From IMG/VR virus record IMGVR_UViG_3300033067_002132, positions 32,001 through 96,000 of that record: a stretch of DNA of 64,000 nucleotides. One strand, written 5' to 3'. Shown one piece after another: positions 1-57,563 of the stretch; the first letter of the stretch is position 1; the number at the start of each line of letters is the position of its first letter. The position numbers were made by a program, and so were the translations under genes. This DNA comes from a virus. Taxonomy: Duplodnaviria > Caudoviricetes. A model generated the notes under the pieces. That model saw only the letters and a program-made list of their open reading frames with translations. It made no database searches and was not told where the DNA came from.

Positions 1-693
1 TTTTCATTATATAAATTGTTACCTGAAGTTTTAAAAGATGCAAAAAAAGAATTTAATAGTCCATATTTAGATAAGGGTTGGACCTATAAAGACTATTTAT
101 ATTATCATTTAGACAAACAATTGCATAAAACTGATTATGGAATATATTTAAAGGGATTTAGTTTTCATGCACGCGCAATAACTCATAAAGAAAATTTTTC
201 TTTTTTAGATAGATCTAAATTAATGGAAATTATTCTAGATAAAATAGAAAATGAAACTTATTCGCCCGAAGATGATAAAATTCTTATTAAAATAATTTCT
301 CTATTTTCGGGGCAAATGCTTTTAGGGCGAAATATTATGCCTAGTGGAACTACCGATATCGAACAGTGTCCTGAATATGGACAAAGAATTAAATTAATGA
401 ATTTACATTTAAAATTGGCGCGAAAATTAAAAAAAGAACAAAATTCATATAAGGATTAAAAATATGAAATTAATTAAAAGAGGCGATAAAGATAATCCTA
501 ATCGAAAATTTCGTGGTGAATGTCGAGGTTGTGGATCTATATTTGAAGGAGAAAGATCCGAATTCAAACAAATAAATTATGATTTTAAAAATCAAATAAA
601 TTATGTTGGTAGTACATGTTTAATCTGTGGAGATATTTTTATTTTATTTCCTTATGATTATAAAGTAGAAGAATTAAGTGTAGGAGAACAAAT

Positions 694-31905: not shown

Positions 31906-32460
31906 ATGGATATCGATGCCTCTTTTATTGAAAAATATAAGTTTCTAATTCATTATAACATTAGAAAGTTTTCTAACTATTATGGAAGTTTAAATCGTTA
32001 TGAAGATTTTTTTAATACAGCTCTTTTAGTAATTTATAATAATATTGATAAATTTGATCAAACTAAAACTAAAGGAACATTAGAAGGCTTTTTATCTACA
32101 AAAATTCGGCAAAAGATTATTGATATTATTAGAACGGAAACTCATACTAGTTCAAAAAAGAAGGAAAAAGAAGTTCATATTTCATTTAGTACGCCCGAAT
32201 TAGAAGTTGTAAGTAAAAATTTAAAAGAAGAAGATAGATTAAAAGAAATCGACGACAAAGAAATTATATCTATCGCTTTAAATGAATTAGATGAAAGAGA
32301 AAAAGATGTAATTACTAATTTATTTTATAACGATACATTAAGCGTAGAATTAGCTAATAAATATAAAATCTCAGGCTCAATGGTTAGTCTTATTAAAAAT
32401 TCTGCGATGAAGAAAATGCGTGATAAATTAGAATATATGAATATTAAATCGGTTGTTTGA
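31906..32460 (+). CDS. RNA polymerase sigma70-family factor (regions 2 and 4)
   Basis: IDKFD.TK...F...IRQ.IID.IR; L..LDEREK.VI...FY......ELA....IS...VS.I...A.KKMR. Confidence 0.8.
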   Translation: MDIDASFIEKYKFLIHYNIRKFSNYYGSLNRYEDFFNTALLVIYNNIDKFDQTKTKGTLEGFLSTKIRQKIIDIIRTETHTSSKKKEKEVHISFSTPELEVVSKNLKEEDRLKEIDDKEIISIALNELDEREKDVITNLFYNDTLSVELANKYKISGSMVSLIKNSAMKKMRDKLEYMNIKSVV

Positions 32461-32489
32461 CGAAAGGGAAAAGAGATGGCATGATTAGA

Positions 32490-32850
32490 ACGTTGACCGG
32501 GAGTAAGACATTAGACGCTAATAACGGCTAATCTCGAAAATGAAACCGGGATTTGACATATTAAGAGTAAATGATGGCGCTATTAAGTCGTCTCTATAGA
32601 AAATTTTAGCCAAATCTAGGGGAATTGGATACCTTGTATCCGACCCGCTTTTGAAATACTAGACTTAGACGAAATTGAAAAGCTAAAGACTTTGGGGGTT
32701 GGGAGGAACTTAAAACCCCCTGCAATTTTTAAGAGAAAAACATCGGCCGATGGGAGAGTTTAAAAAACCATAACTATCCACGCGAGATAGGGATTAAATA
32801 AAAATATTCTAGCCCTGGTCGGGCTTTGATGCGTATTCTCTCCTCTCTTA
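32490..32850 (+). ncRNA. Candidate structured ncRNA modules
   Basis: ORF-free, downstream of TTGACG-N17-CATGAT; multiple stems and pseudoknot pairings. Confidence 0.5.
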
Positions 32851-32899
32851 TTACTAAATGCGGATTTGACAAAAGAGAAAAAGGCGGTAAGATGATTTC

Positions 32900-33636
32900 A
32901 TGTTAGTGAGGCATAGCTGACATTCACTTTCAGATTTAATAGATTTCCTAAGTTACCGTAAAAGGAACTAAAAATCTTTTAGGGTTTAGGCTAGAATACC
33001 TAAAATAGCACGTTCTCAATTGCTAATCTGACGAACGACAAATTAAATGATTAGCTAAAGGGCTCTGTATTAAAAATCTAGAAGTGGTGAAAGAGCATTA
33101 AACTTCTATATAATTTGGCCGTGATGATCGTACCAAATTTGATTGTTTTATTAATCATCTTAAAAGAAACCGGAATAGCCATACTAGTTAGGTATTGTTC
33201 CTAACGGATTAGTAGAAATATTAATCAGATTGTTCAAGTCGGTCATATGGGCTAACCCCATAAAATGGAGTTCCCCTTGCGAGGATAGAACTATAGGTTT
33301 CTTTTTATAAATTTTCGGTTATACCATACGAAACTAAGCTGAGTAAACGGTTAAAGATTTGAGGTTTAGCACTGTACAGGATCTCAAAATTCACTGTTGA
33401 AAGTCGAATATAAAACAGATATTCCTTAGCGGGAAAAAGGGTTTTATTGTTTGTTCTATAAATGGGCAGGCTAATATATAGTAACTTAGCCTTAAAATTT
33501 TAGGTAATAAATGTTGCAACGTTTATTTCCTAGTTTGGTGAAAACCAAGCTTACTAAGTAAATATACGTAATAAGGTGGAATAACCATTAATTACTATTT
33601 TCAATTGTGTGTATGCGAGCAAGGTCGCATATTTTA
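32900..33636 (+). ncRNA. Candidate large ornate ncRNA (~735 nt, GOLLD/ROOL size class)
   Basis: ORF-free; sigma70 promoter at 32866; nested long-range helices, GNRA-capped hairpins, one pseudoknot. Confidence 0.65.
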
Positions 33637-34770
33637 CTTAATAATTTGCACTGTGCTAAAGCCTCCCGTCTAATTAACGGTCCTATCAGCCGAGGCAATC
33701 CCGTATGATAGTAGTCGGGCCAAATTTAACAAAAGAATAATTATATGAGCGCAAAAGGTGTCCATGATCGTTGTTCAGAATTAAAAGATAATAAAGAAAC
33801 TCGCAATCTTAAAAACACTAAACGATGGCTTAAAAGAATAAAGCATCGAAAAGATCGGCGTGAGAATAAAGTAACAGAAATGGAATAATTATATGAATGG
33901 CAAACATCTTGGAGAATTATATTTAAAGTTTCATAAAGGTGATAGTCTTACAGACGCCGAATTGAAAGAATATAATAAATTTTGCGACGAAATGGCGAAT
34001 TTTTGTGGTGTTACAGGAAATTCAATGGTTCTGCCTCGATTTGCAATAGATTGGCAGACTACTGAAAACCAAATGTTTCATCGGAAAATTGATAAAGAAT
34101 AATTTTTTAAATTGTAGTCAGAGAAATCTGATGGGATAATGCGGAAAAAGATATACTAGTGAGATGTGTATCCTGTTGCCGCTGACCTAATGGGGAAGAA
34201 CCAGGCATCCCGGGAAATTGCTCACCAACAGCCTTACAATTTATTATTTGACAACACAGAAAAGAAAGTATATAGTCTTAACCATGACACCAAACGATAT
34301 TCAAGTAGGTAAAATTTACGTTAACTCTATTAAAAACCAAAAATATTTGGGTATTGGTTTACGAAAAATGTGGGAAGGAACCTTTGGTAATAAAGATTCA
34401 AATTTTGAAGAAAAAAGGCTTGTAATTATAGAAGGAAATCCTGAGTATATTGGATTAATTGTTCAATCTCCCGAAAATTGTTCAGAAGAATATTGGGATG
34501 ATTTCCGACTAGATAATAGTTAATTTTAATAGTATATGCGGACAGGCAAATGTGGGATAATTCGCCTAGGCCAATGCGACCGCCCCCACTATACTATTTT
34601 ATATAATTGTAAAAGATTTGAGAGTTAGAACGGTCAAAACATGCAAAGAAATCTACATTTCATTTGCAAACAATACCGGCATAGTGTAGAATATGTCTCT
34701 CAGATGGAATAATAGATACGACAGTTATAGTTGAAACATTTTTCTAAATAATTGCCGTTGACTGATTTTC

Positions 34771-38312: not shown

Positions 38313-38436
38313 GTTAATGTAGAAAATTGGCAAATCAGGGGGTTTGTACCGAAAACAGAAATCACAGGGAAGACCGCCGATTAATGATATAGCTGTTAGA
38401 CATTAATTTATGTAGGTTCGACTCCTACCATTAACT
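38313..38436 (+). ncRNA. Class II tRNA-like RNA with inflated anticodon loop
   Basis: GTTAATG/CATTAAC acceptor, TGGCAAA D-loop, GTAGG-TTCGACT-CCTAC T-arm; no 7-nt anticodon loop and no CCA. Confidence 0.6.
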
Positions 38437-45216: not shown

Positions 45217-46397
45217 ATTTTCTAAATAATATGAATACCATTACCACAAAGGCCAATCCTGTTATTAAAACCCCTAGAATTGGAGATCTTTATTTAGATA
45301 GTAATGAAGAATTATATATTTTAGCTAGAGTAGATCTAAACGTTTATTCCGCGATTTCTTTGAAGGATGGGGAACCTTGGACTTCGGACCCAAGACCAAC
45401 AGTTCAAGAAGCAATTTATGGCTTGATTTTTTGTAAAAGGAACGCTAAGATCACTATTGAATGAACGCCACCGAAGCAAATAAGAATAGAAAGATCGGCG
45501 ATAAAATTACCTTTAATTTGGATCATAGCCCGCATGCAATGGGCGAGGGAATTATCGTAAGATTCGACGATGATTACTGTATCGTAAAAATTACTAAAGA
45601 TTGTCAAGAATATGGTCTAAAATTTGAATGCGGGCGCGATATCGTTGTCTTTTTCGACGAAATAACGAGTAAATAATTATGAAATACATTCTCACCCAAT
45701 TTTTTCCTGAATTATCTTTTATTGGTAATGCGAGGGACGCACAATTAATTTTGAATTCTGAAATTCTTAAATAATGAATAATTTCGACCAACTATTTTTA
45801 TTGTTTTTCATCGTAATGTTTGTCTTGATTATTCTAAAAGTTACTCAGAATTAAATTATGCACGCGCACGATCTAAATAAGCTAATAAATAAGGTAATTG
45901 CCGCGAAAAGTGGGGATTCTATTTATATCGGCGAGTGTATGTCAAGTGAAGAATTGGTGGATTTTTATCTTTATCTTTTGCGGCGCCTAATTTTTCCTGT
46001 TGTTAATTCATATAAAGAGGGCGAAAATCTTTATTATATTTTAACAGTGAAGAAAAAGTAGTGGACTATTGACAAACAGAAAAAGAGATTTAGACTGGAA
46101 AAACATGAAACGCGCATTTATCCATCTACCTAACGGTCAAACGTTTGAACTAAACAGAACGAGTAATGAAGAAATAACAGGCGTTGAAGTTGTCCAATTA
46201 CGAAGCTCTATGAAGGAAGCAGTTTCGTTTAGTTCCGAAGCTTTTACTGGGCCTAATTTCGATAAGAAAGTTATTTTGGTTCTGTGGGGCGAGGTACTCA
46301 AAAATTCTTTTATCACGATCGAGTAGAAACCTATTGACGAAAAGTAAAAAAGGATTTAGCCTTTTCAAGTCGAACGAAACATTAACTGAAAAATTCA

Positions 46398-46943
46398 ATG
46401 AATACCGATACCATTGCCCCTACGCCGACCGCCGAAATCGTCTCGCCCGAGACTCAGGAAGCCGTTAACGCTCTGCTTGCCAAGGTTGACGCTCCTCCCG
46501 TGCAAGACGCGGTTGAAGTCGCGCCGCCTGTTTCTGAAACGGTTTCCGCGCCCATTGCGGAAATCATCTCTGCCCCCGCCGAATCGGTTTCAGCGGAAGT
46601 TCCCGCTCCCGCGCCGATTGCTGAAACTACCCCCACCCCCGCTCAGGTTGCGGCGACCCCTCCCGCCGCAACCCCTGCCCCTGCCGCCCCTGTGATTGAG
46701 GCACGCAAGGTTTCCGTCGAAATTCTTTTCCCTAACAAGGAAGAGTTTACCAAGCGGGATATTGAAGTAATTAACGAGACGAATTACGTCGGCGCAAGTG
46801 AGCTGATTAATATGCTCGTTAGTACGGGTCAGGTTGAAAAGGTCCGCAAGCAGCCTCAGGCTGGACGTGGCAAGCCCACCGATATTTTCCGGTTGACGCC
46901 CAAGGCGCCGATTGCGAAAAACAAGAAGAATAACAAGAAGTAA
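46398..46943 (+). CDS. Pro/Ala/Thr-rich N-terminal region plus winged-helix-like C-terminal domain
   Basis: GRGKPTDIFR wing motif like 31501; own promoter and terminator. Confidence 0.55.
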   Translation: MNTDTIAPTPTAEIVSPETQEAVNALLAKVDAPPVQDAVEVAPPVSETVSAPIAEIISAPAESVSAEVPAPAPIAETTPTPAQVAATPPAATPAPAAPVIEARKVSVEILFPNKEEFTKRDIEVINETNYVGASELINMLVSTGQVEKVRKQPQAGRGKPTDIFRLTPKAPIAKNKKNNKK

Positions 46944-46960
46944 CTTCGTCGGTCCTTCAC

Positions 46961-46992
46961 AGGGGGAGGGGGTTTTACCCCCTCCCTTTTCT
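46961..46992 (+). terminator. Intrinsic terminator
   Basis: G-rich/C-rich hairpin followed by a T run. Confidence 0.7.
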
Positions 46993-47230
46993 TCTCTCTC
47001 TATGAATATAAATAGGGAAATCATACTAGCTTCGCCCATACTCAAAAAGCAATGGGAACAATCGATGCTATCTATGGAAGAATTTATTCTAAGAGCGGTG
47101 GATAATTTTGTGGTAAATTCGAAAGGGGGATCGAATGGTATTTCTTCTAATTTTGGCTCTAACGGTAGTGCTGGGTGTTCGTCTCTAAACTCTTGACATC
47201 GAATTCGGTTTTGAATAATCTATTGCCCGC

Positions 47231-47893
47231 ATGAGAGTTCTATTCACCCGCATTTCATCTAACAAAAAAACGGGTCCTATTCCCGTCTCTCTTACAACCG
47301 CAGACTCATGCCCCGACGTTTGTCCTTTGAAGAAAAAAGGTTGCTATGCATTTTTAGGGTATATAAGAATTCATTGGGATCGTGCCAATAAAACAGGTAT
47401 GAAATGGGGCGAATTTTGCGTAGAAATAGCTTTATTGCCTTCGGGACAATTGTGGCGCCACGATCAGGCGGGAGACCTGCCAGGAAAGAATAACAAAATT
47501 GACGCGCCCAAACTCGCTTTATTGGTTGAGGCTAATCTTGGCAAAAAAGGATTTACTTATACGCATAAGCCTTTAACAAAAGAAAATAGCGCCGCGATTA
47601 AGTATGCGAATTCTAATGGTTTCACGATCAATCTATCGGCCAATAATCTAAGGCACGCAGATGAATTAGCTAAAAAGAACGTTGGACCGGTTGTGACGTT
47701 GCTACCAAAGGATCAAATGAATAATTGCTTGACCCCCGAGGGGCGCAAAGTTATTGTCTGTCCCGCAGTCACGCGAGTAAATACAAATTGCATGACTTGC
47801 AAGCTGTGCGCAAATGCGAAAAGGTCAGTTATCATAGGTTTTCCTGCGCATGGCGTGGCCAAAAACATTGTGGACAAGATCGCGAAAGAATAA
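47231..47893 (+). CDS. Cys-rich Gp88/DUF7227-like phage protein
   Basis: S.NKKTG.IPV, SCP..CP....CYA, RH..AGD, CPA......C..CKLC, IGF.AHG. Confidence 0.65.
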   Translation: MRVLFTRISSNKKTGPIPVSLTTADSCPDVCPLKKKGCYAFLGYIRIHWDRANKTGMKWGEFCVEIALLPSGQLWRHDQAGDLPGKNNKIDAPKLALLVEANLGKKGFTYTHKPLTKENSAAIKYANSNGFTINLSANNLRHADELAKKNVGPVVTLLPKDQMNNCLTPEGRKVIVCPAVTRVNTNCMTCKLCANAKRSVIIGFPAHGVAKNIVDKIAKE

Positions 47894-48171
47894 GTATATG
47901 GAAAAGAAATCGACATCCCTAATTTCGCTTCGTTATCGTGGTTTTAAGGTTAAGTATCTATGTCCCGGAAACGTGCGGGGATCGCGAGTTAAGATTATCG
48001 ATTTGCGACATGACGAATCGGTTACGCTTTGTTTAGAGGATGAATATCGGGATTCTAGCGAGCAAGCTTACAACTGGTTAGAAGAACACGGCATTAAGAT
48101 TGTCGCTACTATGCTGGAACGAAATGAGGAAGTTTTCTTGACTGAGGATTTCAAAACCCATATTGTCTAGG

Positions 48172-48894
48172 TTAAAGGATTTTTGATCCTTTTTTCATGT
48201 TTTCTTCTTTCCATAAAGGTTGCAAGTTAGTATAATGAAAACATTTATGTAAATTTTCCTCTTTTGTAAGATCAAAAGAAACACAAGGAAGAATATGATC
48301 TATTTCCCATTTTCCATAATTATCCCAAGACATATTTTCTTTAAATTTCATTTCTAGATAAGACTTAAGATAATCAATAGAACAACCAAGATAAGCAATA
48401 GTTCTCTCTCTGTTGCAATTAAAGATATTTCTAATATATTTATTTAATCTGCGGCGTAAATTAGATTTAATTCTATATTGAATATTATTCTTTCTTCTGT
48501 TTCTATACATTTCTCTCACTTTTTCTTTATTTAATAATTTCCATCGTCTTGAAGCTTCCCTTTTTATCTTCATTTTTTCTGGATTAGCATGTCTAATTAT
48601 TTTATTTTTTAGAACTTCGCATTTCTTACAATAAGGACTAAAAATTCCCTTTTTCGATTTATTAAAAAAAGATAAATCAAATAAAGTCCCACAAAATTTA
48701 CAAATTTTTTCTGTTCGTTCTTTTTTCTTTTTAAATCTTTCTCTTTCTATATTATTCCTTCTTAAAATAGAATAAATAGTAGTTTTATTTACATTAAATA
48801 GTTTTTCTAATTCTTTTCCTTTTATATTGCTTATATAAGCTTCTATTATTTGTTTTTCTTTTTCTTCAGAAGTTTTATTATGCGTTTTTCTCAT
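48172..48894 (-). mobile_element. HNH/endoVII-like homing endonuclease with N-terminal HTH
   Basis: WEIDHILPC.SFDL.KEEN..KCFHYTNLQPLW..EN..KG; likely start 48894. Confidence 0.8.
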
Positions 48895-48970
48895 ATAAGA
48901 AATTACACAGAAAATTAGGGTTTCCATAATAATAGTTGACACAAATGGTTTTTTGTGAGAAACTCAAAGT

Positions 48971-49390
48971 GTGATTAAACATTTACTTTCTTTTTTATTG
49001 TGTTGTAATGTTTTTGCAGGTCAATATAATGAAAATGAAATAGTAGCAACCGTTTTAATTTTAGAAGCAGGCGGTGAAAAAGACGATAGATGTATGTCCG
49101 CCATTTACGAAGTAATTTGTAATAGGCAAATAAAAAGACATTTATCAAAAATAGAGGTTTGTTTACAAAAATATCAATTTTCTGAATTTAATGATGGAAA
49201 AATCAAAGAAAAAATAGCGAAAGCAAAAAAGCACCCAAAGTACAAGAAAGCCCTAAGTTTAATTAGTATGAAAACTGATTATACTCAGGGCGCGACGCAT
49301 TTCTACTCTACTAATATTGCCAAACCATACTGGGCAAAAAAGATGAAAGAAACGCTTGCTTTAGGAGCGTTTAAGTTCTATAAGGAATAA
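48971..49390 (+). CDS. Cell wall hydrolase (SleB/Hydrolase_2)
   Basis: EAGGE, VI.NR, QFS, GATHFY....PYW, FY. Confidence 0.85.
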   Translation: MIKHLLSFLLCCNVFAGQYNENEIVATVLILEAGGEKDDRCMSAIYEVICNRQIKRHLSKIEVCLQKYQFSEFNDGKIKEKIAKAKKHPKYKKALSLISMKTDYTQGATHFYSTNIAKPYWAKKMKETLALGAFKFYKE

Positions 49391-51140
49391 AATTTTATGC
49401 AAAACTTTCTAAATATCGCGAAAATAAATCGTAATAATTTTATTAAACGTTGCAGTAAATGCGACGAGGCAAAACTTGATTTATTCGAATATAAAGATAG
49501 TGTATTCGATGAAAAATTCACGCTAATTTGCTCGTGCTGTCATTACGTAATATTTAATCTCTCTGTTTTGGACTAAGAAAAACAGTTATTGACTTTCAAT
49601 CGGCGATTTAGTATTTTCTAACCATGAAACTTGACCAAGCTCTCGCCTATCTCAAAAGTTCCGGTTTCAAAATCACTCAGAAAGGCACAAAAACTTTTTT
49701 GGTTCAAAAGGGGAATGATCACCCTTGGCAAGCGGGAGAAGAGAAATTAATTAGAGTCGCGGAAAAGTACAAAAACATTCAAGAATAATTGACGCAAAAC
49801 GTTCACGTTTAAGTCTATGCAAATCACCCGCAGATCCCCCCTTACTGGCGAGAAGAATACTCGCGAAATTCCCGTGACTTTTCAAAACATAAAAGAATGG
49901 CAAAATGGTAAGTCAATTCAAGACGCTATGCCAAATCTTTCGGCGGAAGATCGAGAGTTTATTATGACTGGTTATACTCCCGAAGATTGGGCGAAAATGT
50001 TTCCGTCCGAACCTGAGAACTAAGTAAAAATTCTTATTGACGTTTAGCGCGGAATCGTTAGATTCAAGCCTATGAAATTAACTAAGTACCCTTTCAACGG
50101 AAGATGGCGCGTGGAAATGGTAGGAACGATTGACGAAATCGATTCTTATCTAATTCGCTTATACAATATTGGTGCGACAAATGCGACTTTTGAGCGCGAT
50201 CAATTGGAGACGTTTTTTCATATTGACTTGGAAAAGAAACGGTGGGAAAAGGCTTTGTCCGGCTGGTTGCAAATCCAAAATGCCGAAAACGAAACGCGCA
50301 AATTGTGCCGAATTGCACAGAAACAGCGCCGGGATAAAATTCCCATTTATTCGCAAGTAATGCAACGTTTGGCGCAAGAAGAAATCGCGGCAATTCCTAT
50401 TCCTGAAATCAAATCTGCTGTCCTGTCGCTTAAGAATCACGACTATAAGGGAATCTCTTATATCGTGGGGACCGATCATGAGGCGGAAATGATGAGTAAG
50501 GAAACGGAAATCCCTGCCAAAATTAACGTAAAGAAAATGACGGCGCGAAATTTTTCTTGCAACGCAACGGCAAGCGAGTAAGGATGAAGCCATGAACGGA
50601 CAAGAATTTTCCCAAAAGCAAACGGCAATCTTTAATAAGTATGAAATCACAGATCCGAGAATGGTCTCGATTATTTCATGCCAAGCTTGGGAGGATAATC
50701 ATTCGGACGGTTATGAAGCCGTCCTAGTAAAAACTGAAAAATATTGTCAGTTTACTGAAACGATCTTGAGTGCGTTTTTCGCTAGTATTAAATTGCGCTA
50801 AACAAGAATATAAGCCATGCCTCATTTGCCCATTTCTTTAGCTCTTTTGACAGATTTAGAAAGAGAAGAAAGCATAAGACGGGAAAGAACGGAAAAATAT
50901 ATCTTTGAAATAAAAGAAGCAAAGAAAGAATTCGAAAAAATGAATGAAATACATCACGGTTTTATTGGTTATTGGCCCGAAATGAACGAGCAAAAAAAGG
51001 CCAAACTATCCAGCCCTAAATGGGCCGATTTTCGGAAAAAGGGAAAAATCAAAGGGTGGCAGCGGAATAAACGTTGACGCGGAAATTAATTTAGGATAGG
51101 CTTTCGGTGTTGTGAGATTGGAGAGAGTTGAAACAACAAC

Positions 51141-51284
51141 GGCGGGGTAGTTTAATTGGTAAAATATTTTCCTTTTTTTGGTAGGCAATAGGGATCAATA
51201 TTGCCAATATCCGAAACGAAATCAAGACTGATCCTCTTGAATAAAATAAGGAAAAAGTTGCGGGTTCAAATCCCGCTCTCGTCT
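51141..51284 (+). ncRNA. tRNA scaffold whose anticodon loop is replaced by a two-hairpin kissing-loop insert
   Basis: Acceptor, D and T arms intact; TTTTCCTT/AAGGAAAA stem encloses ~75 nt. Confidence 0.7.
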
Positions 51285-52458
51285 GCTCCAATAATTAGCT
51301 AAAGTTAAATAAAGCTAAAAAAACAGAAAAACGAGGCGTCAAATTATACGCCTACACAACACAAAATGGAATATAAATATCTTCCCCATTACGACGATAA
51401 AACGTCAATAAGATTCGGCGAACTACCTTTGCCAAAGGAGATTTTTGCGCGGCAGGAATTAATGCGCGAAATTGGATTTACTGCGGGCGAGGAAGTTTGG
51501 AAGAAAGGGTATGGATACGTACCCATTTATTATTTCGTTCGCGAATTAACGAAAGACGAGCAAAATCTTTTGTGCCTTTGCCCCTTGACGGATGAGACGG
51601 CCGATGGTAAATTTCGTTCATGACGCCAATTACGCTGACCCCCGAGCAATTGCTTAACCTGCTTAAAGATTGCAAACGCGAAAGCGTTTTGTGCTGTAAT
51701 AGTTCGCTGCCAATTAAGCTTGTTTTGATCACTGAAATGCGTGAGGGACCGACAGGCTATTTGCCGCGCAGTATTTTCGGTGTTTATTACAAAAATCAAG
51801 TCGGGCGATTTTTTAATTCTTTGGAGGAAGCAATTGAATGCTATTGCCGAATTGAGAAAGCGAACGAAAGATTTCCTTGACGCTCAAAGACATTAGTTAA
51901 TACTCTCTCGCATGAACTCCACGATACTCAAAGTCTCTTATACTGGAACGCAGATTATCATCGCGAAAACGCTGGCCGCGATGCGAATTAAGAATCCCGC
52001 GCCGATTAAGTTCTATCCTACCAGAGCGGCGAGAGGAACTCATAACGTTGAGCGTATGTTCACGGTTTACCTTGAAGTTGAGACCACCACGGGGCGAATT
52101 CTGAGCGGCGGCGTGCAAGTTAACTAAATCTTTTATGGTAACAAAAACCTTTGCTTTCCTTCCTCTTAATAACAAGCAAGCAACGCCCGAATTTCGCTCT
52201 TTTATTTTGTCATTTATTGAAGGAATTAGAGTAGCGGAATCGGCACGCGGGCACGTTGTGCGAATTGAACCTACACTAAGCGGGGATTGTTCCGGTTGGT
52301 TGCTTGTATGCGAAGCGGAAATGGGAAAAGTTATTGGACAGTATTTGTCAAATCTCAATATTGAGCTTCGCGAGATTTGAAAACGCCCACTTGACAAAAA
52401 GCAAAGTCTCAGCTAACCTTTAGAAGTCGGTAGGAAAACAACGAAACGAAACAACACT

Positions 52459-52806
52459 ATGAAGAACGAAACCTTTGTGAACAGTCTCTTGAATGCGTCG
52501 GTCCCTACGGGCAAGATCGATTTGGCCGCGGTCCAGGCGGCGATTCAGGAAAAGAACGATGAGAACAACCGCGCCAAGATCGAACGCGCCCGCAATCTTT
52601 TCGAACGGTTGAATGGGGAAGTCACGTCCGCCGTGGAAAGCCTGCGAATCATTCGTCAGCAGGAAAAGGAAGCGAAGCAAACCGTGATTCGGCATGCTGC
52701 CGCTTTCGCCACGTTCAAGGAAACGGGCGATCTCAATAAGGTCGCGGCGATCCTGTACCCCGGCGAGAAGATCGCGCAGGAAAATTTCGTCCGCCGATAT
52801 TCCTGA
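52459..52806 (+). CDS. Hypothetical coiled-coil protein upstream of the pistol ribozyme
   Basis: ORF with own promoter TTGACA-N17-TAACCT at 52391. Confidence 0.7.
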   Translation: MKNETFVNSLLNASVPTGKIDLAAVQAAIQEKNDENNRAKIERARNLFERLNGEVTSAVESLRIIRQQEKEAKQTVIRHAAAFATFKETGDLNKVAAILYPGEKIAQENFVRRYS

Positions 52807-52817
52807 TCGCATAACAA

Positions 52818-52887
52818 ACTCGACTAGGCGAGTATAAATAGATAATTAAGCCTAGTGCGTTTGCGGGTAAAACCCCGCAAGGTTTAT
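52818..52887 (+). ncRNA. Pistol self-cleaving ribozyme
   Basis: ACTCG-ACTAGG-CGAGT-ATAAA-TAG-ATAA-TTAA-GCCTAGT-GCG-P3 hairpin-GT-TTAT; matches the pistol layout element by element. Confidence 0.88.
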
Positions 52888-53020
52888 GATATTAATTATA
52901 TATTATCTCCGAATTGCAAGTGCCTTGCGCCGCGCAATTTATCCCTGAAACAACAGGGGTTAAAAGCTTCAAGCTAAAGGAAAAAAAAGCCTTCGTGCTG
53001 TCGGTGTTTGTTTCCTTCGT

Positions 53021-53061
53021 TGAGTGGGGCGGGGAGAGAAATCTTCCCGCCTCATTTGTTT
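53021..53061 (+). terminator. Intrinsic terminator
   Basis: TGGGGCGGGGAGA-GAAA-TCTTCCCGCCTCA hairpin followed by a T-rich tail. Confidence 0.7.
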
Positions 53062-53097
53062 ATTGACATGCGCGGTGCATTTAGCTAATTTGATCGC

Positions 53098-53607
53098 ATG
53101 CAAGACCTGACCGCTTCTCTCGCCGATAGTCTTTCACGCAAACACTATCGCAAGACGCCTGCCATGTTTTCCGTCATGACTCTGCGCGATAAACTTCCTT
53201 TCGATTCTAAGCCTCTCGCCGATGATCCTAATAAAATTGCCGATTATTGTCGCCAAGCAATTATTGGCAAAAAAGGGTACAATCCCGACGTGGAAAGTTG
53301 TTGGGTTATCGTAATGAATACGCGCCGACGAATTGAAGGGCATTTTCTAGTAGCAACAGGAACTCTCGACACTTTGTTAGTTCATGCTCGCGAAGTGTTT
53401 CGCGGCGCTATTCTTGCCAATGCTGCGGCGATTGTTCTTATGCATAATCACCCAAGCGGCGACCCGACTCCGAGCGAAGCTGATATCCGCGTGACCCGAG
53501 AAATGATTAGAGCGGGCCAACTACTAAAAATCGAAGTATTAGATCACGTAATTTTAGGAGAACCTAAGCATTGCTCGCTTAAGGAATTAGGGTATTTTAC
53601 TTATTAG
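53098..53607 (+). CDS. radC: RadC/JAB-domain protein
   Basis: HAREVFR.AI, HNHPSGDPTPS.AD, LDHVI. Confidence 0.92.
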   Translation: MQDLTASLADSLSRKHYRKTPAMFSVMTLRDKLPFDSKPLADDPNKIADYCRQAIIGKKGYNPDVESCWVIVMNTRRRIEGHFLVATGTLDTLLVHAREVFRGAILANAAAIVLMHNHPSGDPTPSEADIRVTREMIRAGQLLKIEVLDHVILGEPKHCSLKELGYFTY

Positions 53608-54078
53608 GCAAAATTTGCCTATTGACTTTTCATTTTCGTTCTGATAGCTTTAAATTATGCAAATCGACAAGCAACTACTCATCGCCCGCAACACGCTTCT
53701 CAACCTGAACGAAGAGTTGGCTGGATATCGCATTTACTTCATGGGTGATAAATTCCGCGAGGATACCACGGTACAAGTTCATGAAATTCTTTCGCGAATT
53801 CTGATCCTTAAAGACCAAGTGGAAACCGCATTGGAAAGTGTCACAATGCCTTTCAAGGTTCAAGTGGCGGCGGGCGAATTGAATCCTGGCGATAAAGCTT
53901 TTTTGATCGAAACGAATCCCGAAATGGGAATGGAAGAAACCCTCGACTGGACCTGTACATATATCGGCCAAGAAAAGGTTCTTTTCGAATACGTAAAACA
54001 AGGAAAACAAACGAGAACCACAATGCGGAATAAAACTGAGATTGTTTGGAAACTGCGCTAAATTAAATTCGATTGAAA

Positions 54079-54294
54079 AATCCCCGATTCTAGAATTTAT
54101 TGCTAAATAAAAAGCCTACTCAAATTCCCTGGTTCTAGAAAGTCGCGCTAAATAAAAGTACGTAGCGCGGACCCTGGCCGATTGGGCGCATAGCGGGCCG
54201 AACTAGCCGGGGCAATTAGAGTAGAAACCCTTAAGAATTAAAACTATGGTAAAAACCCTTAAGAACAGGCGTTATGGTAAAAACAACTAAGATC
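54079..54294. repeat. Two sets of imperfect direct repeats
   Basis: 2x AAAT.CC..TTCTAGAA...GCTAAATAAAA; 3x GTA(A/G)AAAC..TAAGA. Confidence 0.55.
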
Positions 54295-54367
54295 AGCACC
54301 TAGAAGAAAAGAGCTAAGGAAAAGAACTATTGCAACGCCAATGGCTTTCTGCCAAGCTTTCGCTCCT

Positions 54368-54916
54368 ATGAATCCTATTGAAACCCTAAAGACATTCGCG
54401 CACAATCCTCCCGGATTTGCCAGTTTTACCTATACGGCAAAAGGTAGCGGGGAAACTGCGCGGCATACCGTCATCCTCGGATTTGACTACAACAAGAGTG
54501 TGGAAAAGAGCCTAACCGATTTGGCGTGCATTAATCGGGCGGATTTCCCCGCAATTTCGGATGAATTGTGGCCCGTTGCCGTTTCGGAAATTCGGGCCAG
54601 TCTCGAAAAGACGCTGGCCGCGCACGTAAGGGGCGAGCAAAACGCGGACTACACAAAAAAGGATCAGTATTTGTCCCTGGGGTTTTCTGGTATGCACGTT
54701 AACCTTAATGACGGAAGCCTACAAGTTTTCGGGCTGGCGCACGCTAAGACTGTCCTGGTGCCCGGCGAATATAAGCCCGTCAAATCCCGTCCCCTCACGC
54801 TGGCCAAGGAAGCCATCCGCAAGACGCTGGCCGTGGGAAAATTCCGCGAGTTTGCCTTTGACTCCGGGACGATACACACTGTCCGCATGAACGGTTCGAC
54901 CCTCGAAATCGAGTAG
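54368..54916 (+). CDS. Conserved hypothetical phage protein
   Basis: Long ORF behind a TTGCAA promoter; YK.VKS..LT.AK..IRK.L...KFR.F. Confidence 0.65.
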   Translation: MNPIETLKTFAHNPPGFASFTYTAKGSGETARHTVILGFDYNKSVEKSLTDLACINRADFPAISDELWPVAVSEIRASLEKTLAAHVRGEQNADYTKKDQYLSLGFSGMHVNLNDGSLQVFGLAHAKTVLVPGEYKPVKSRPLTLAKEAIRKTLAVGKFREFAFDSGTIHTVRMNGSTLEIE

Positions 54917-55347
54917 GGGGAAAGACTATGCTCTTTCTCCTAATCGTTATCATTATCATCCTTTGTGCCGCTTACCATGAATAGAATAAAAAACGCTATC
55001 CTAATTCTTTTTTGGGTAGGCGTAGGATTCGGCGTTATTTTCGTAGTTTTTACCTTTATTTCGAACCTTTATTCTTCCTAGTTATGAAGCTAACCTTTTG
55101 CCTTGTATGGGGTCGCAATCGCCAGTTTCGCCTAAGCGAGCAAGGCTTAGCTGTGCTGCGCGTCCTTCGTCCCTTTGGCCCCTTGCCGTTCCTGCGGTGG
55201 GATTCCGTTGTGCGATTCGATCCTGGCCTTGCGTTGCTTGCGTTGCTCTTTTCGCTCCTTTTCGCATTTACCTATTGACGGCAAAAACCGTGTCTGATAC
55301 CGTTTCCTTGTCGGTCGCAGAAACAACCAAAACAAATTAGATAGAAC

Positions 55348-56166
55348 ATGAAAGCCAAACTTTACTTGCACGCTGGCGGAGCCCTTACAACGTGGGACGC
55401 GCTTAATGCTCTGCCCACCCCGCCCGCGATTGGCAAACACGTCCCTGTTGGACACGCGGCCTTTTTGGACCGCATCGAAAGACTGTTGCCCGTGGACGGA
55501 TTCAGTGTGATCGAACGCCAGATTGCCGTCGCAAAGGACGGGGCGCGGATGTTTGCGCTCCTTCAACTAGCCCACCCTAGCCTAACGTGTGGCGATGGGT
55601 CAGGGTATATCATGGGTGTGCGAAACTCTCACGACAAGGCGTTTGCCGCTTCTGTTACCGTGGGCCGTTGCCCCTTCGTTTGCGATAATCTCGCGTTTTC
55701 GTCCGGGGCGGATGGTGTTGTCGTTAATCGGCGCCATATTGGGGGCGTGCATCGTGACTTGGGCGGAATGGTTATGGAGTTAATCGCGGGGCTCGCCGAT
55801 CGATTCCGGATTACGGATGCTCGGGACGCTTGTTATCGGGGCGCTACGCTTGACAATCGGGACGCTGATCACTTCGTTTTAGAGTTGTACCGCAACGGGG
55901 CGATTGGTTGGGGCGAAGCACGCCGTGTTCTCGCGGAGTACCACGGGACGGCCGTTAACCCCGACAAGGTTGAATTCCGTCATGCGGAATTCGAACCCCG
56001 GACCGCCTATTCTCTTTTCAACGCTTTTACGCAAGAATTGAAGGGAATTGACGACAAGGGTGTGGCCCACCCTAACGTTTGGGAACTCCCGAAGGCGACC
56101 GCAATCGCGTGCGAAGTGTTCGACCGCCTTTGCACCTTCAACCCCGCCGGGGCGATTGTCGTCTAG
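55348..56166 (+). CDS. DUF932-family protein
   Basis: G.RNSHDK, FVCDNLAF, RH, T.YSLFNAFT..LK. Confidence 0.8.
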   Translation: MKAKLYLHAGGALTTWDALNALPTPPAIGKHVPVGHAAFLDRIERLLPVDGFSVIERQIAVAKDGARMFALLQLAHPSLTCGDGSGYIMGVRNSHDKAFAASVTVGRCPFVCDNLAFSSGADGVVVNRRHIGGVHRDLGGMVMELIAGLADRFRITDARDACYRGATLDNRDADHFVLELYRNGAIGWGEARRVLAEYHGTAVNPDKVEFRHAEFEPRTAYSLFNAFTQELKGIDDKGVAHPNVWELPKATAIACEVFDRLCTFNPAGAIVV

Positions 56167-56176
56167 TGTGACTCAC

Positions 56177-56207
56177 GGGGAAGGGGGCTTTCCCCCTTCC
56201 CCCCTCT
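56177..56207 (+). terminator. GC-rich hairpin, possible terminator
   Basis: GGGGAAGGGGG/CCCCCTTCCCC hairpin with a weak tail. Confidence 0.5.
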
Positions 56208-56573
56208 CCTCAATTCCAATCTCTACCAACACTAAAAACCATGAATTCCACCATCGCGAAAAATCTCGAAAACTGGCGTGAGTCCCGCGGGCTTAACATT
56301 CGCCGAAACGAAGTCAACCGAATCCTCGCTCAACGGGTCGCAAACGAAGCGGCAGAGAACGCCCGGCGAGCCGAGGAAGCCTTGCAAGCGGGGCTTGCGT
56401 CAGATCGGATCGAACGTGCCAAACGTATGGGGGCTACCCCGCCCGCTTCTGCTATCGACGTAAAGTTTCGGCGCGGGTCGGATGGAAGGGGCGGGCGTAC
56501 TTTCTGGGAATGGATTTTCCCCAAGCAAATCGAGACTGTCGCGGCCTATTAAGTAAAAGCGCGTAGGCTATCG

Positions 56574-56603
56574 CCCCCTAGGTCACAAGCCTAGGGGGTT
56601 TTT
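56574..56603 (+). terminator. Intrinsic terminator ending the GC-richer block
   Basis: CCCCTAGG/CCTAGGGG followed by a T run. Confidence 0.8.
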
Positions 56604-57563
56604 CTTATACCCCGCCAACGCTCTAGGATCGACGGAGAAGCGTTTTGATTGCGCGACGATACCAACAGAACGCCAACAATTAATGATAACGCCAGACAAA
56701 CCGCTGTAGCTACCCTATAGGCACGGTCGATAGCGCCGAAAGCCAACTAACTGTTAAAGGAAGCTAGGCAAAAAGTGCCGTTTTGAACTAAATGGGCGCG
56801 AATAAGAAAGATCACTAAGAAATTATGCCCCCCAATTTCTTAATTAATTTTAGTAGTGAAATTTCGTAGATGCCCCCGGGGAGGTCGAATTAACTCGCTC
56901 ATTATCATTTAAACCTTTTATTATATATTCTTTCTTTCCCCACATATATATAAATCATTAATAACGTATTATAATTTAATCTTTTATTGTATATATTACT
57001 CTCTATATCTTTATCTATTATTCCTCTTCTAAAAAGAAGTCGAAGTTATAGTTTTTTGTAAAAATGGCGGGGGTCATATTTATTCTATAGCTTTATTATA
57101 GATATAGGGGGGGTATTTCTTATTCTATATAGATTTAAAAATATTAATAAATATTAGTTTTTATAAAAATGGCCCGAAGTATATTTTTTATAGACCTTTG
57201 TTATAGATACTCTTTTTTTATTCTGTGTAATAATGTTTAGATTTCCGCCCGAATATATTTAATATAAAACAATGAATACAGAAGAAAATGATGTTTTATG
57301 GAATCTTGCTAAGGAAAGTTTAGATGTACTTAAAGAACAAGATAAAAATGCGGCGCCATTAATTATAGTTGGATTTAATAATCAAACTACTCAGGTTTAT
57401 TCTTATACTCTTCCTTATCCCGGATTAACTTTATTAGATTATTCATTAATTCTTGGTTCTATTGCTAAGGATCATTTAAATACTTTTAATTATGATTCTA
57501 AAAAATTAGAACAAATAAAATTAGAAATCGCCCAAGGATTTATAGAAGGATTAAATTCAAAAA

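Follow-up and report, generated by a model that had tools for sequence, protein, structure and literature searches.

A candidate stable-RNA locus of conserved and swappable modules behind tRNA-type promoters in a large uncultured phage

The locus

What is carried in the largest gap between the genes of a large phage? The DNA analysed here (the window, 64,000 nt) comprises bases 32001-96000 of the 193,745-bp IMG/VR record IMGVR_UViG_3300033067_002132, a phage record rated complete by CheckV with a GC content of 29.4%; its source is a large, AT-rich uncultured phage. Genes lie almost all on the + strand, and the gap at 32461-33744 (1284 nt; coordinates are window numbering unless marked genome or L003, a contig of a relative described below) is the largest of the genome without any open reading frame (ORF) of at least 45 aa, in keeping with a first-pass annotation that had described an ORF-free stretch here. 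The gap is richer in GC than the genome as a whole (0.36 vs 0.294), has no paralogue in the phage's own genome, and is bounded upstream by a gene for a sigma-70-family factor (Table 1) and downstream by a run of small + strand genes, the first of them at 33745. Of the alternative genetic codes tried, table 4, TAG=Q and TAA=Q all failed to open a reading frame in the gap. Elsewhere in the genome, ARAGORN called 21 tRNA genes and a transfer-messenger RNA (tmRNA) gene, the latter backed by Rfam at 94.5 bits.

The first-pass annotation had proposed a single ornate non-coding RNA of ~735 nt at 32900-33636 with its own promoter. Comparison with one relative indicates that structured non-coding RNA is present on the + strand, but does not support a single unit spanning exactly these positions. 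With confidence a little better than even, we read the gap as a locus for stable RNAs, composed of conserved and swappable modules and furnished with signals of the tRNA/tmRNA type, its RNAs being probably processed by the host and acting in trans.

A single relative

No match to the gap was obtained by blastn against 50,697 phage records, no close relative was found in GenBank phages or IMG/VR, and a word-based protein search with the sigma factor returned only the gene itself. A HMMER pass over 1.84 billion representatives yielded one real relative of the sigma factor (P0002; 47% protein identity, E 3e-37), which is encoded on a 2128-nt Logan contig, L003. The next-best matches, P0003 and P0004, were rejected (bacterial chemotaxis context; densely coding phage contig without a gap). 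A second gene, gene X, stands upstream of the sigma gene in both phages and has 54-62% protein identity to its L003 counterpart; among 5.8 billion proteins, the sigma factor and gene X have one relative each, and it is the same one. A sister contig, L040, represents the upstream part only of this relative and adds a DHFR gene further upstream. The terminase has only distant relatives, at 27-32% identity.

After its sigma gene, L003 has an ORF-free gap of 882 nt that can be aligned with the gap of the window. Pattern searches for additional copies were also made. Five exact patterns returned from viral_contigs either nothing or 30 chance matches without further similarity; three 55%-GC contigs from a metagenome pattern scan were rejected, having only a 22-mer in common, and three unrelated bacterial metagenome-assembled genomes from a scan of genome_contigs were rejected, having only 18-21 nt in common. 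The sequencing runs that hold the stretch are two DNA runs, with identical sequence and zero variants.

Conservation and compensatory change

Several non-coding blocks are better kept between the two phages than the flanking genes: identity is 82% in Block A, 86% in the leader (promoter P3 and the 5' hairpin) and 72% in Block B, against 63-68% in the genes (Table 1). Block A, the 5' hairpin, M2 and Block B are kept in the one known relative and are thus taken to be under selection; Block A contains an invariant run of 35 nt. The blocks do not coincide with the span 32900-33636. Conserved non-coding sequence starts at ~32585, so that Block A (276 nt and better conserved) lies upstream of that span and outside it, whereas within it only ~260 nt (M2 and Block B), the 20-nt 5' hairpin and the promoter are kept in L003; M1 is swapped, and the last ~330 nt are private to this phage. 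Judged by this comparison, the conserved core of the proposed unit is the 5' hairpin together with M2 and Block B.

For counting of base pairs, helix arms were placed by explicit coordinates in the window and in L003. A MAFFT alignment of Block B was dropped, since two gaps were misplaced and most of the covariation was hidden, and explicit coordinates were used instead together with a model-based alignment. Across M2, Block B and the leader, 14 pairs were changed on both sides and kept, two were changed on one side by way of G-U (G-U to G-C), and one double change broke a terminal pair. Compensatory changes of the kind expected of a conserved structured RNA were thus found in both Block B and M2, slid controls giving 0-2. 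If a random double change keeps pairing in ~3 of 8 cases, the chance of 14 in 15 is ~1e-5 by our own arithmetic. The first-pass annotation had made its RNA depend on covariation being found, and 14 double changes kept against 1 broken supply it. The helices that it quoted are all in the sequence, within 1 nt of the places given, and three of them are supported by changes in L003: ATGATTA/TAATCAT, ATGGG/CCCAT (helix P6) and the closing helix P1 of Block B. Two others fared less well: the TTAGTA-GAAA-TATTAA hairpin, which is helix P4 of Block B, is degenerate in L003, and for the GCTCT/AGAGC pseudoknot L003 offers no complementary partner.

A covariance model, R1, was built from the window sequence of Block B alone with our own structure. 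It matched L003 1764-1909 over its full length (105.5 bits, E 2e-23); neither the rest of the window nor four further non-coding loci of the genome yielded another copy. Pairing in the R1-based alignment extends to 99% of cells and drops to 34-50% once the 3' partners are shifted by 1-3 columns; the count of double changes is 15, and 0-2 after the shift. Of these 15, two stem from a third row that is spurious (window 183-207, E 0.8) and two from the poorly aligned helix P4, so that 11 in Block B can be considered robust.

The RNAalifold consensus of Block A holds 68 pairs, including the helices AAGAGA/TCTCTT and GGAGAG/CTCTCC. Four pairs are double-changed, 4-6 are changed on one side via G-U and none is broken, and slid controls gave 0 double changes; the compensatory signal is weak against a shuffle control (37/500, with 82% identity and two sequences). 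Given this control and the lack of thermodynamic excess, the structure of Block A is plausible, not proven. Only the + strand is compatible with the G-U pairs seen in Block A, in the leader and in helices P4 and P5.

These changes also bear on whether the gap acts as DNA. Large ORF-free regions of big phages can be origins or terminal signals, and the invariant run in Block A, without thermodynamic excess, would suit a replication origin, a packaging or injection signal or a set of protein-binding sites; a decaying spacer could likewise hold helices that are incidental. However, no iterons or tandem repeats were found in the locus, and conservation exceeds that of the neighbour genes. The substitutions in stems are compensatory, and the one-sided ones pass through G-U, a strand-asymmetric route that is meaningless for duplex DNA. 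A DNA-level element or spacer is accordingly rated as highly improbable.

Table 1. Features of the locus, other copies of its promoter subtype, and their state in L003 (window numbering unless marked genome)
Feature	Position	Strand	Sequence or description	State in L003
Gene X				68% nucleotide identity
Sigma-70-family factor gene (regions 2 and 4)	31906..32460	+	Pfam Sigma70_r4 6e-8, Sigma70_r2 1e-4; PHROG sigma factor	63% nucleotide identity
Promoter P1 (upstream, promoter-like)	32457..32485	+	TTGACG-17-CATGAT with TG extension; overlaps sigma stop codon	
Promoter P1 to Block A start				61% identity
Block A	32585..32860	+	Most conserved non-coding block	82% identical to 1155-1439
Promoter P3	32866..32893	+	TTGACA-N16-TAAGAT; 10/12 positions match sigma-70-type consensus; conserved hairpin starts 8 nt after -10 box	
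Promoter P3 and 5' hairpin	32861-32927			86% identity
5' hairpin	32902..32921	+	GTTAGTG...AGCTGAC	Kept; U-G to C-G, one more pair gained
Variable module	32928-33039			46% identity, equal to shuffle level
M1, variable helix-closed module	32930..33031	+	6-7 bp closing stem, three arms; four-way, cloverleaf-shaped in minimum free energy fold	
Helix	32930/33025		TCAGATT/AATCTGA	
M2 block	33040-33161			62% identity
M2	33047..33158	+	Closing helix ATGATTA/TAATCAT, hairpin AATTTGG/CCAAATT	Three double-changed pairs kept
M2 closing helix	33047/33152		ATGATTA/TAATCAT	TAGATT/AATCTA; 2 double changes kept
M2 hairpin			AATTTGG/CCAAATT	AATTCGG/CCGAAT; 1 double change kept
Block B	33162..33305	+	145-nt multi-helix domain: P1 (10 bp), P1b, P2, hairpins P3, P4, P5, P6, P7	72% identity
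Block B helix P1	33162/33296		AAAAGAAACC/GGTTTCTTTT	AAAAGAAATC/GATTTCTTTT; 1 double change kept
Block B helix P3			GTTAGG/CCTAAC	CAACAG/CTGTTG; 5 double changes kept; loop TATTG unchanged
Block B helix P6			TATGGG/CCCATA	CTTAGG/CCTAAG; 3 double changes kept
Block B helix P7			CCT/AGG	CGG/CCG; 2 double changes kept
3' extension	33306..33610	+	Two hairpins and ~220-nt multi-branch domain; this phage only	No counterpart
Hairpin	33536		TTGGT-GAAA-ACCAA	
Terminator-like hairpin	33611..33642 (hairpin to 33632)	+	GTATGCGAGCAAGGTCGCATAT then TTTACTTAAT; 8 pairs, 3 G-C; weak T run	
Hairpin	33613-33630		ATGCGA/TCGCAT	
Promoter subtype TTGACA-N16-TAAGAT	genome 3922		8 nt before tRNA-Leu, then tRNA-Leu, tRNA-Asp	
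Promoter subtype TTGACA-N16-TAAGAT	genome 23026		12 nt before tRNA-Lys, then tRNA-Arg	
Promoter subtype TTGACA-N16-TAAGAT	genome 15747		~370 ORF-free nt before tmRNA	

Promoters

The promoter that the first-pass annotation had marked at 32866 (promoter P3) is probably real, as judged from the sequence. It has the marks of a sigma-70-type promoter, namely TTGACA and TAnnnT hexamers at a spacing of 16-18 nt, on the coding strand and ahead of a putative transcription unit, and its hexamers are identical in L003 (1444-1471), where the spacer differs at ~6 of 16 positions. Genome-wide, TTGACA-N16-18-TAnnnT has 26 copies on the + strand but only 6 on the - strand, usually with an A-rich spacer, and this strand bias marks a genuine promoter class that a sigma-70-type holoenzyme would read. 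Four copies in the genome are of the exact subtype TTGACA-N16-TAAGAT, and those away from the gap stand ahead of tRNA and tmRNA genes (Table 1). In the tmRNA locus at genome 15747-16554 (L042 248-1055), outside the window, the tag called by ARAGORN is unusually long.

The L003 counterpart of promoter P1 is TTGACA-16-TAGGAT at 1039-1066, of the same class and also overlapping the sigma stop codon. With a site of this promoter class lying over the sigma stop codon in both phages, Block A appears to have its own upstream promoter. No terminator was found between Block A and promoter P3 in a consensus scan. Two side observations concern these signals. A perfect 10-nt complement joins 32888-32897, the -10 box and start region of promoter P3, to 33153-33162 at the 3' end of M2; L003 retains 6 bp of it, one G-C pair being replaced by A-U (read by eye), and it would matter only in read-through transcripts from the upstream promoter. 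Start codons throughout the genome are without a Shine-Dalgarno signal, yet the promoters are classical TTGACA/TAnnnT with A-rich spacers, a combination that constrains the phage's host.

Swapped and private modules

M1 gave no Rfam match as a tRNA (RF00005) at E <=10 and no ARAGORN call. In L003 the same insertion point, between a conserved ACATTCA that follows the hairpin and a conserved AACGA, holds a different helix-closed module, the core of which is a tRNA-like element (L003 1546-1616; Rfam tRNA, 38.6 bits). The T arm of this element is canonical and its anticodon loop has 6 nt; it lacks CCA, is not called by ARAGORN, and is not homologous to M1. The comparison suggests that M1 is a swappable cassette whose place is taken in the relative by the tRNA-like element.

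The 3' side differs as well. In the window, 440 nt lie between Block B and the first downstream gene, whereas the protein gene of L003 that starts at 1925 begins 19 nt after Block B. These arrangements bear on whether the RNA is a cis-acting leader of the downstream early genes (put-like processive antitermination, a riboswitch or an attenuator), controlling passage of the 33611 hairpin into the 33745 cluster. Its location, with a promoter on one side and many small + strand genes in a row on the other, the terminator-like hairpin between RNA and genes in the window, and the short distance from Block B to the next start codon in L003 would all suit such a leader. However, the two phages have different genes downstream: the window's genome lacks a homologue of the L003 gene at 1925 altogether, so there is no conserved regulated gene of the kind that a riboswitch or leader would serve. 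The 440 nt in the window also speak against it, as do a promoter subtype that otherwise stands only ahead of RNA genes and the lack of a match to any riboswitch or leader family in Rfam. We consider a cis-acting leader quite unlikely.

Known RNA families and a possible single giant RNA

Rfam searches at the gathering threshold returned for the window only tRNAs and a Pistol ribozyme, all of them elsewhere in the window, and at E <=10 nothing credible was returned on 32300-33900, 32486-32865 or 32895-33312. The models of GOLLD (RF01998) and ROOL (RF03087) had no match in the window, in these sub-stretches or in L003 1440-1930, nor had that of OLE (RF01071) in the window or the sub-stretches. 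The GOLLD model is founded on the 3' region, which is conserved throughout that family. Because no match was seen even at E <=10, the locus is placed in none of these families, and the first-pass annotation's reluctance to assign it to GOLLD or ROOL was justified. We take the Rfam negative to extend to RNase P, signal recognition particle, 6S and Y RNAs, as far as Rfam 15 models them. A Ro60/Y-RNA system was considered and rejected, since six-frame translation of the genome revealed no TROVE domain and the locus lacks an ACAGCAA motif.

In GOLLD, the 3' region is conserved and the 5' region less so, a variable linker contains tRNAs in some cases, and the RNA lies near tRNA islands (Kretsch et al., bioRxiv 10.1101/2024.12.08.627333); ROOL, from phages and prophages, is a large structured RNA that is often located close to tRNA islands (bioRxiv 10.1101/2024.12.08.627333). 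Like GOLLD, the locus is phage-borne, several hundred nt long and rich in helices, in a tRNA-rich genome; some of its parts are conserved and others variable, and the variable part of the relative includes a tRNA-like element. Block order and total size bear some resemblance to those of GOLLD. Unlike GOLLD, which has a less conserved 5' part, a conserved 3' part and ~800 nt, it has the better conserved block on the 5' side, no covariance model match, an apparent internal promoter and only two known members. With ROOL it shares the character of a large structured phage RNA, but no model match and no motif shown to be common to both.

The likeness to GOLLD raises the possibility of one giant multi-domain RNA of ~0.75-0.85 kb, running from ~32490 or 32585 to 33305, of GOLLD-like build and maybe self-assembling. 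Block A would then be a conserved 5' domain, M1 a variable linker, M2 with Block B a conserved 3' domain, and promoter P3 either internal to the RNA or a second start. The conserved-variable-conserved order and the size (720 nt here, ~750 nt in L003) agree with such an RNA, the tRNA-like element of L003 sits in a helix-closed insertion, and the layout recalls the published account of GOLLD (bioRxiv 10.1101/2024.12.08.627333). M2 and Block B are directly adjacent, Block A is not separated from promoter P3 by a terminator, and the 10-nt complement across promoter P3 and M2 is partly kept in L003. Set against this are the lack of any GOLLD, ROOL or OLE match even at E <=10 on short sub-stretches, and the hexamers of promoter P3, which are of the class demonstrably ahead of other RNA genes. 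Moreover, the consensus folds contain no conserved long-range helix between Block A and the 3' domain, and the modules each close locally. A single giant RNA is a contender that we hold to be doubtful. Rather unlikely in our estimation is a bolder form of the same idea, a new family of giant ornate RNAs of ~0.8 kb (Block A, tRNA-bearing linker, M2, Block B) made from tRNA-type promoters in freshwater phages, which may follow the domain logic of GOLLD, perhaps with self-assembly, without similarity in sequence or model.

Folding energy

The + strand of a 746-nt stretch of the locus folds at -177.5 kcal/mol (z -3.05 vs shuffles) and the - strand at -152.4 kcal/mol (z -2.37). Against shuffles, Block B has z -3.32 and its L003 counterpart -3.19, the 3' part at 33306-33640 has z -3.29, and the signal of M1 is weak (z -1.78). 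Relative to the genome background, 150-nt windows in 33401-33650 reach z -2.6 and -3.3, and those over 32900-33400 are unremarkable. Outside the window, the strongest composition-corrected folding signal of the genome is at genome ~185,600-187,000 (L044), on both strands, overlapping an ORF-free gap at 186183-186565; no Rfam match at the gathering threshold was found there.

Other features of the window

A region of 42-55% GC at ~46000-57000, in a 29% GC phage, has ORFs overlapping on both strands and includes genes for DUF7227 (47231-47893), a RadC-like JAB protein (53098-53607) and DUF932 (55348-56166); it has the look of a mobile or anti-restriction module that was acquired. Inside this island lies the Pistol self-cleaving ribozyme (52818-52887, +; Rfam 68.6 bits, E 2e-10). 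Two Rfam tRNA matches on the + strand are stretched by long internal inserts, to 144 nt at 51141-51284 (47 bits) and to 124 nt at 38313-38436 (29.4 bits); neither is called by ARAGORN, and both may be tRNA scaffolds with extra domains.

Proposed function and significance

In the stable-RNA reading that we prefer, tandem promoters of the host sigma70 type at 32457 and 32866 would drive non-coding transcripts of the + strand, made early by host RNA polymerase, which would fold into a string of helix-closed modules. The transcripts would be trimmed by host tRNA-processing nucleases, in the manner of a tRNA operon, into stable RNAs, and these may function in trans in the infected cell, the most plausible target being the translation or tRNA machinery that is served by the 21 tRNAs and the tmRNA. 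The tRNA operon of phage T4 contains, within its tRNA cluster, species 1 and 2 (rnaC, rnaD), structured non-tRNA RNAs of ~120-140 nt and unknown function that are matured by host tRNA-processing enzymes. We regard these as the nearest functional analogue, and the working model here is of the same type of unit; it differs in having no canonical tRNA in the unit and in its larger conserved parts (145 to 276 nt). The locus is also like the phage's own tRNA and tmRNA genes in its promoter subtype, and like the tRNA genes in the short distance from -10 box to structure, with a tRNA-like element carried in the unit of the relative; unlike them, the unit of the window has no tRNA or tmRNA model match.

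Several points weigh against this working model. None of the runs on record that hold the stretch is an RNA run, and the homologues known are two sequences only, the window and L003, so that the covariation rests on one pairwise comparison. When compared with 128 composition-corrected windows of the same genome, the + strand of the 746-nt stretch has only z -1.46 (rank 9/129), and neither M2 (z -0.46) nor Block A (z -1.0 and -0.6) is more stable than shuffles. Processing by tRNA enzymes is conjecture, since M1 has no tRNA score, and nothing in the analysis points to a specific target. The closing helices of M2 and Block B are only 2-3 nt apart, and this abutment, like the helix-closed insertion at a fixed point, fits one multi-domain RNA as well as it fits an operon.

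Phage RNAs of the GOLLD and ROOL type have striking architectures, but their function is not known and their families are few. To these the present locus adds conserved RNA domains that are Rfam-negative, with clear compensatory changes between two phages and a promoter class common to tRNA and tmRNA genes. With a tRNA-like cassette swapped into the relative, it is a natural experiment in modularity, and Block B, at 145 nt, is a tractable target for work on structure and partners. Should the RNAs be stable in infected cells, they would point to a wider repertoire of translation-linked RNAs in big phages.

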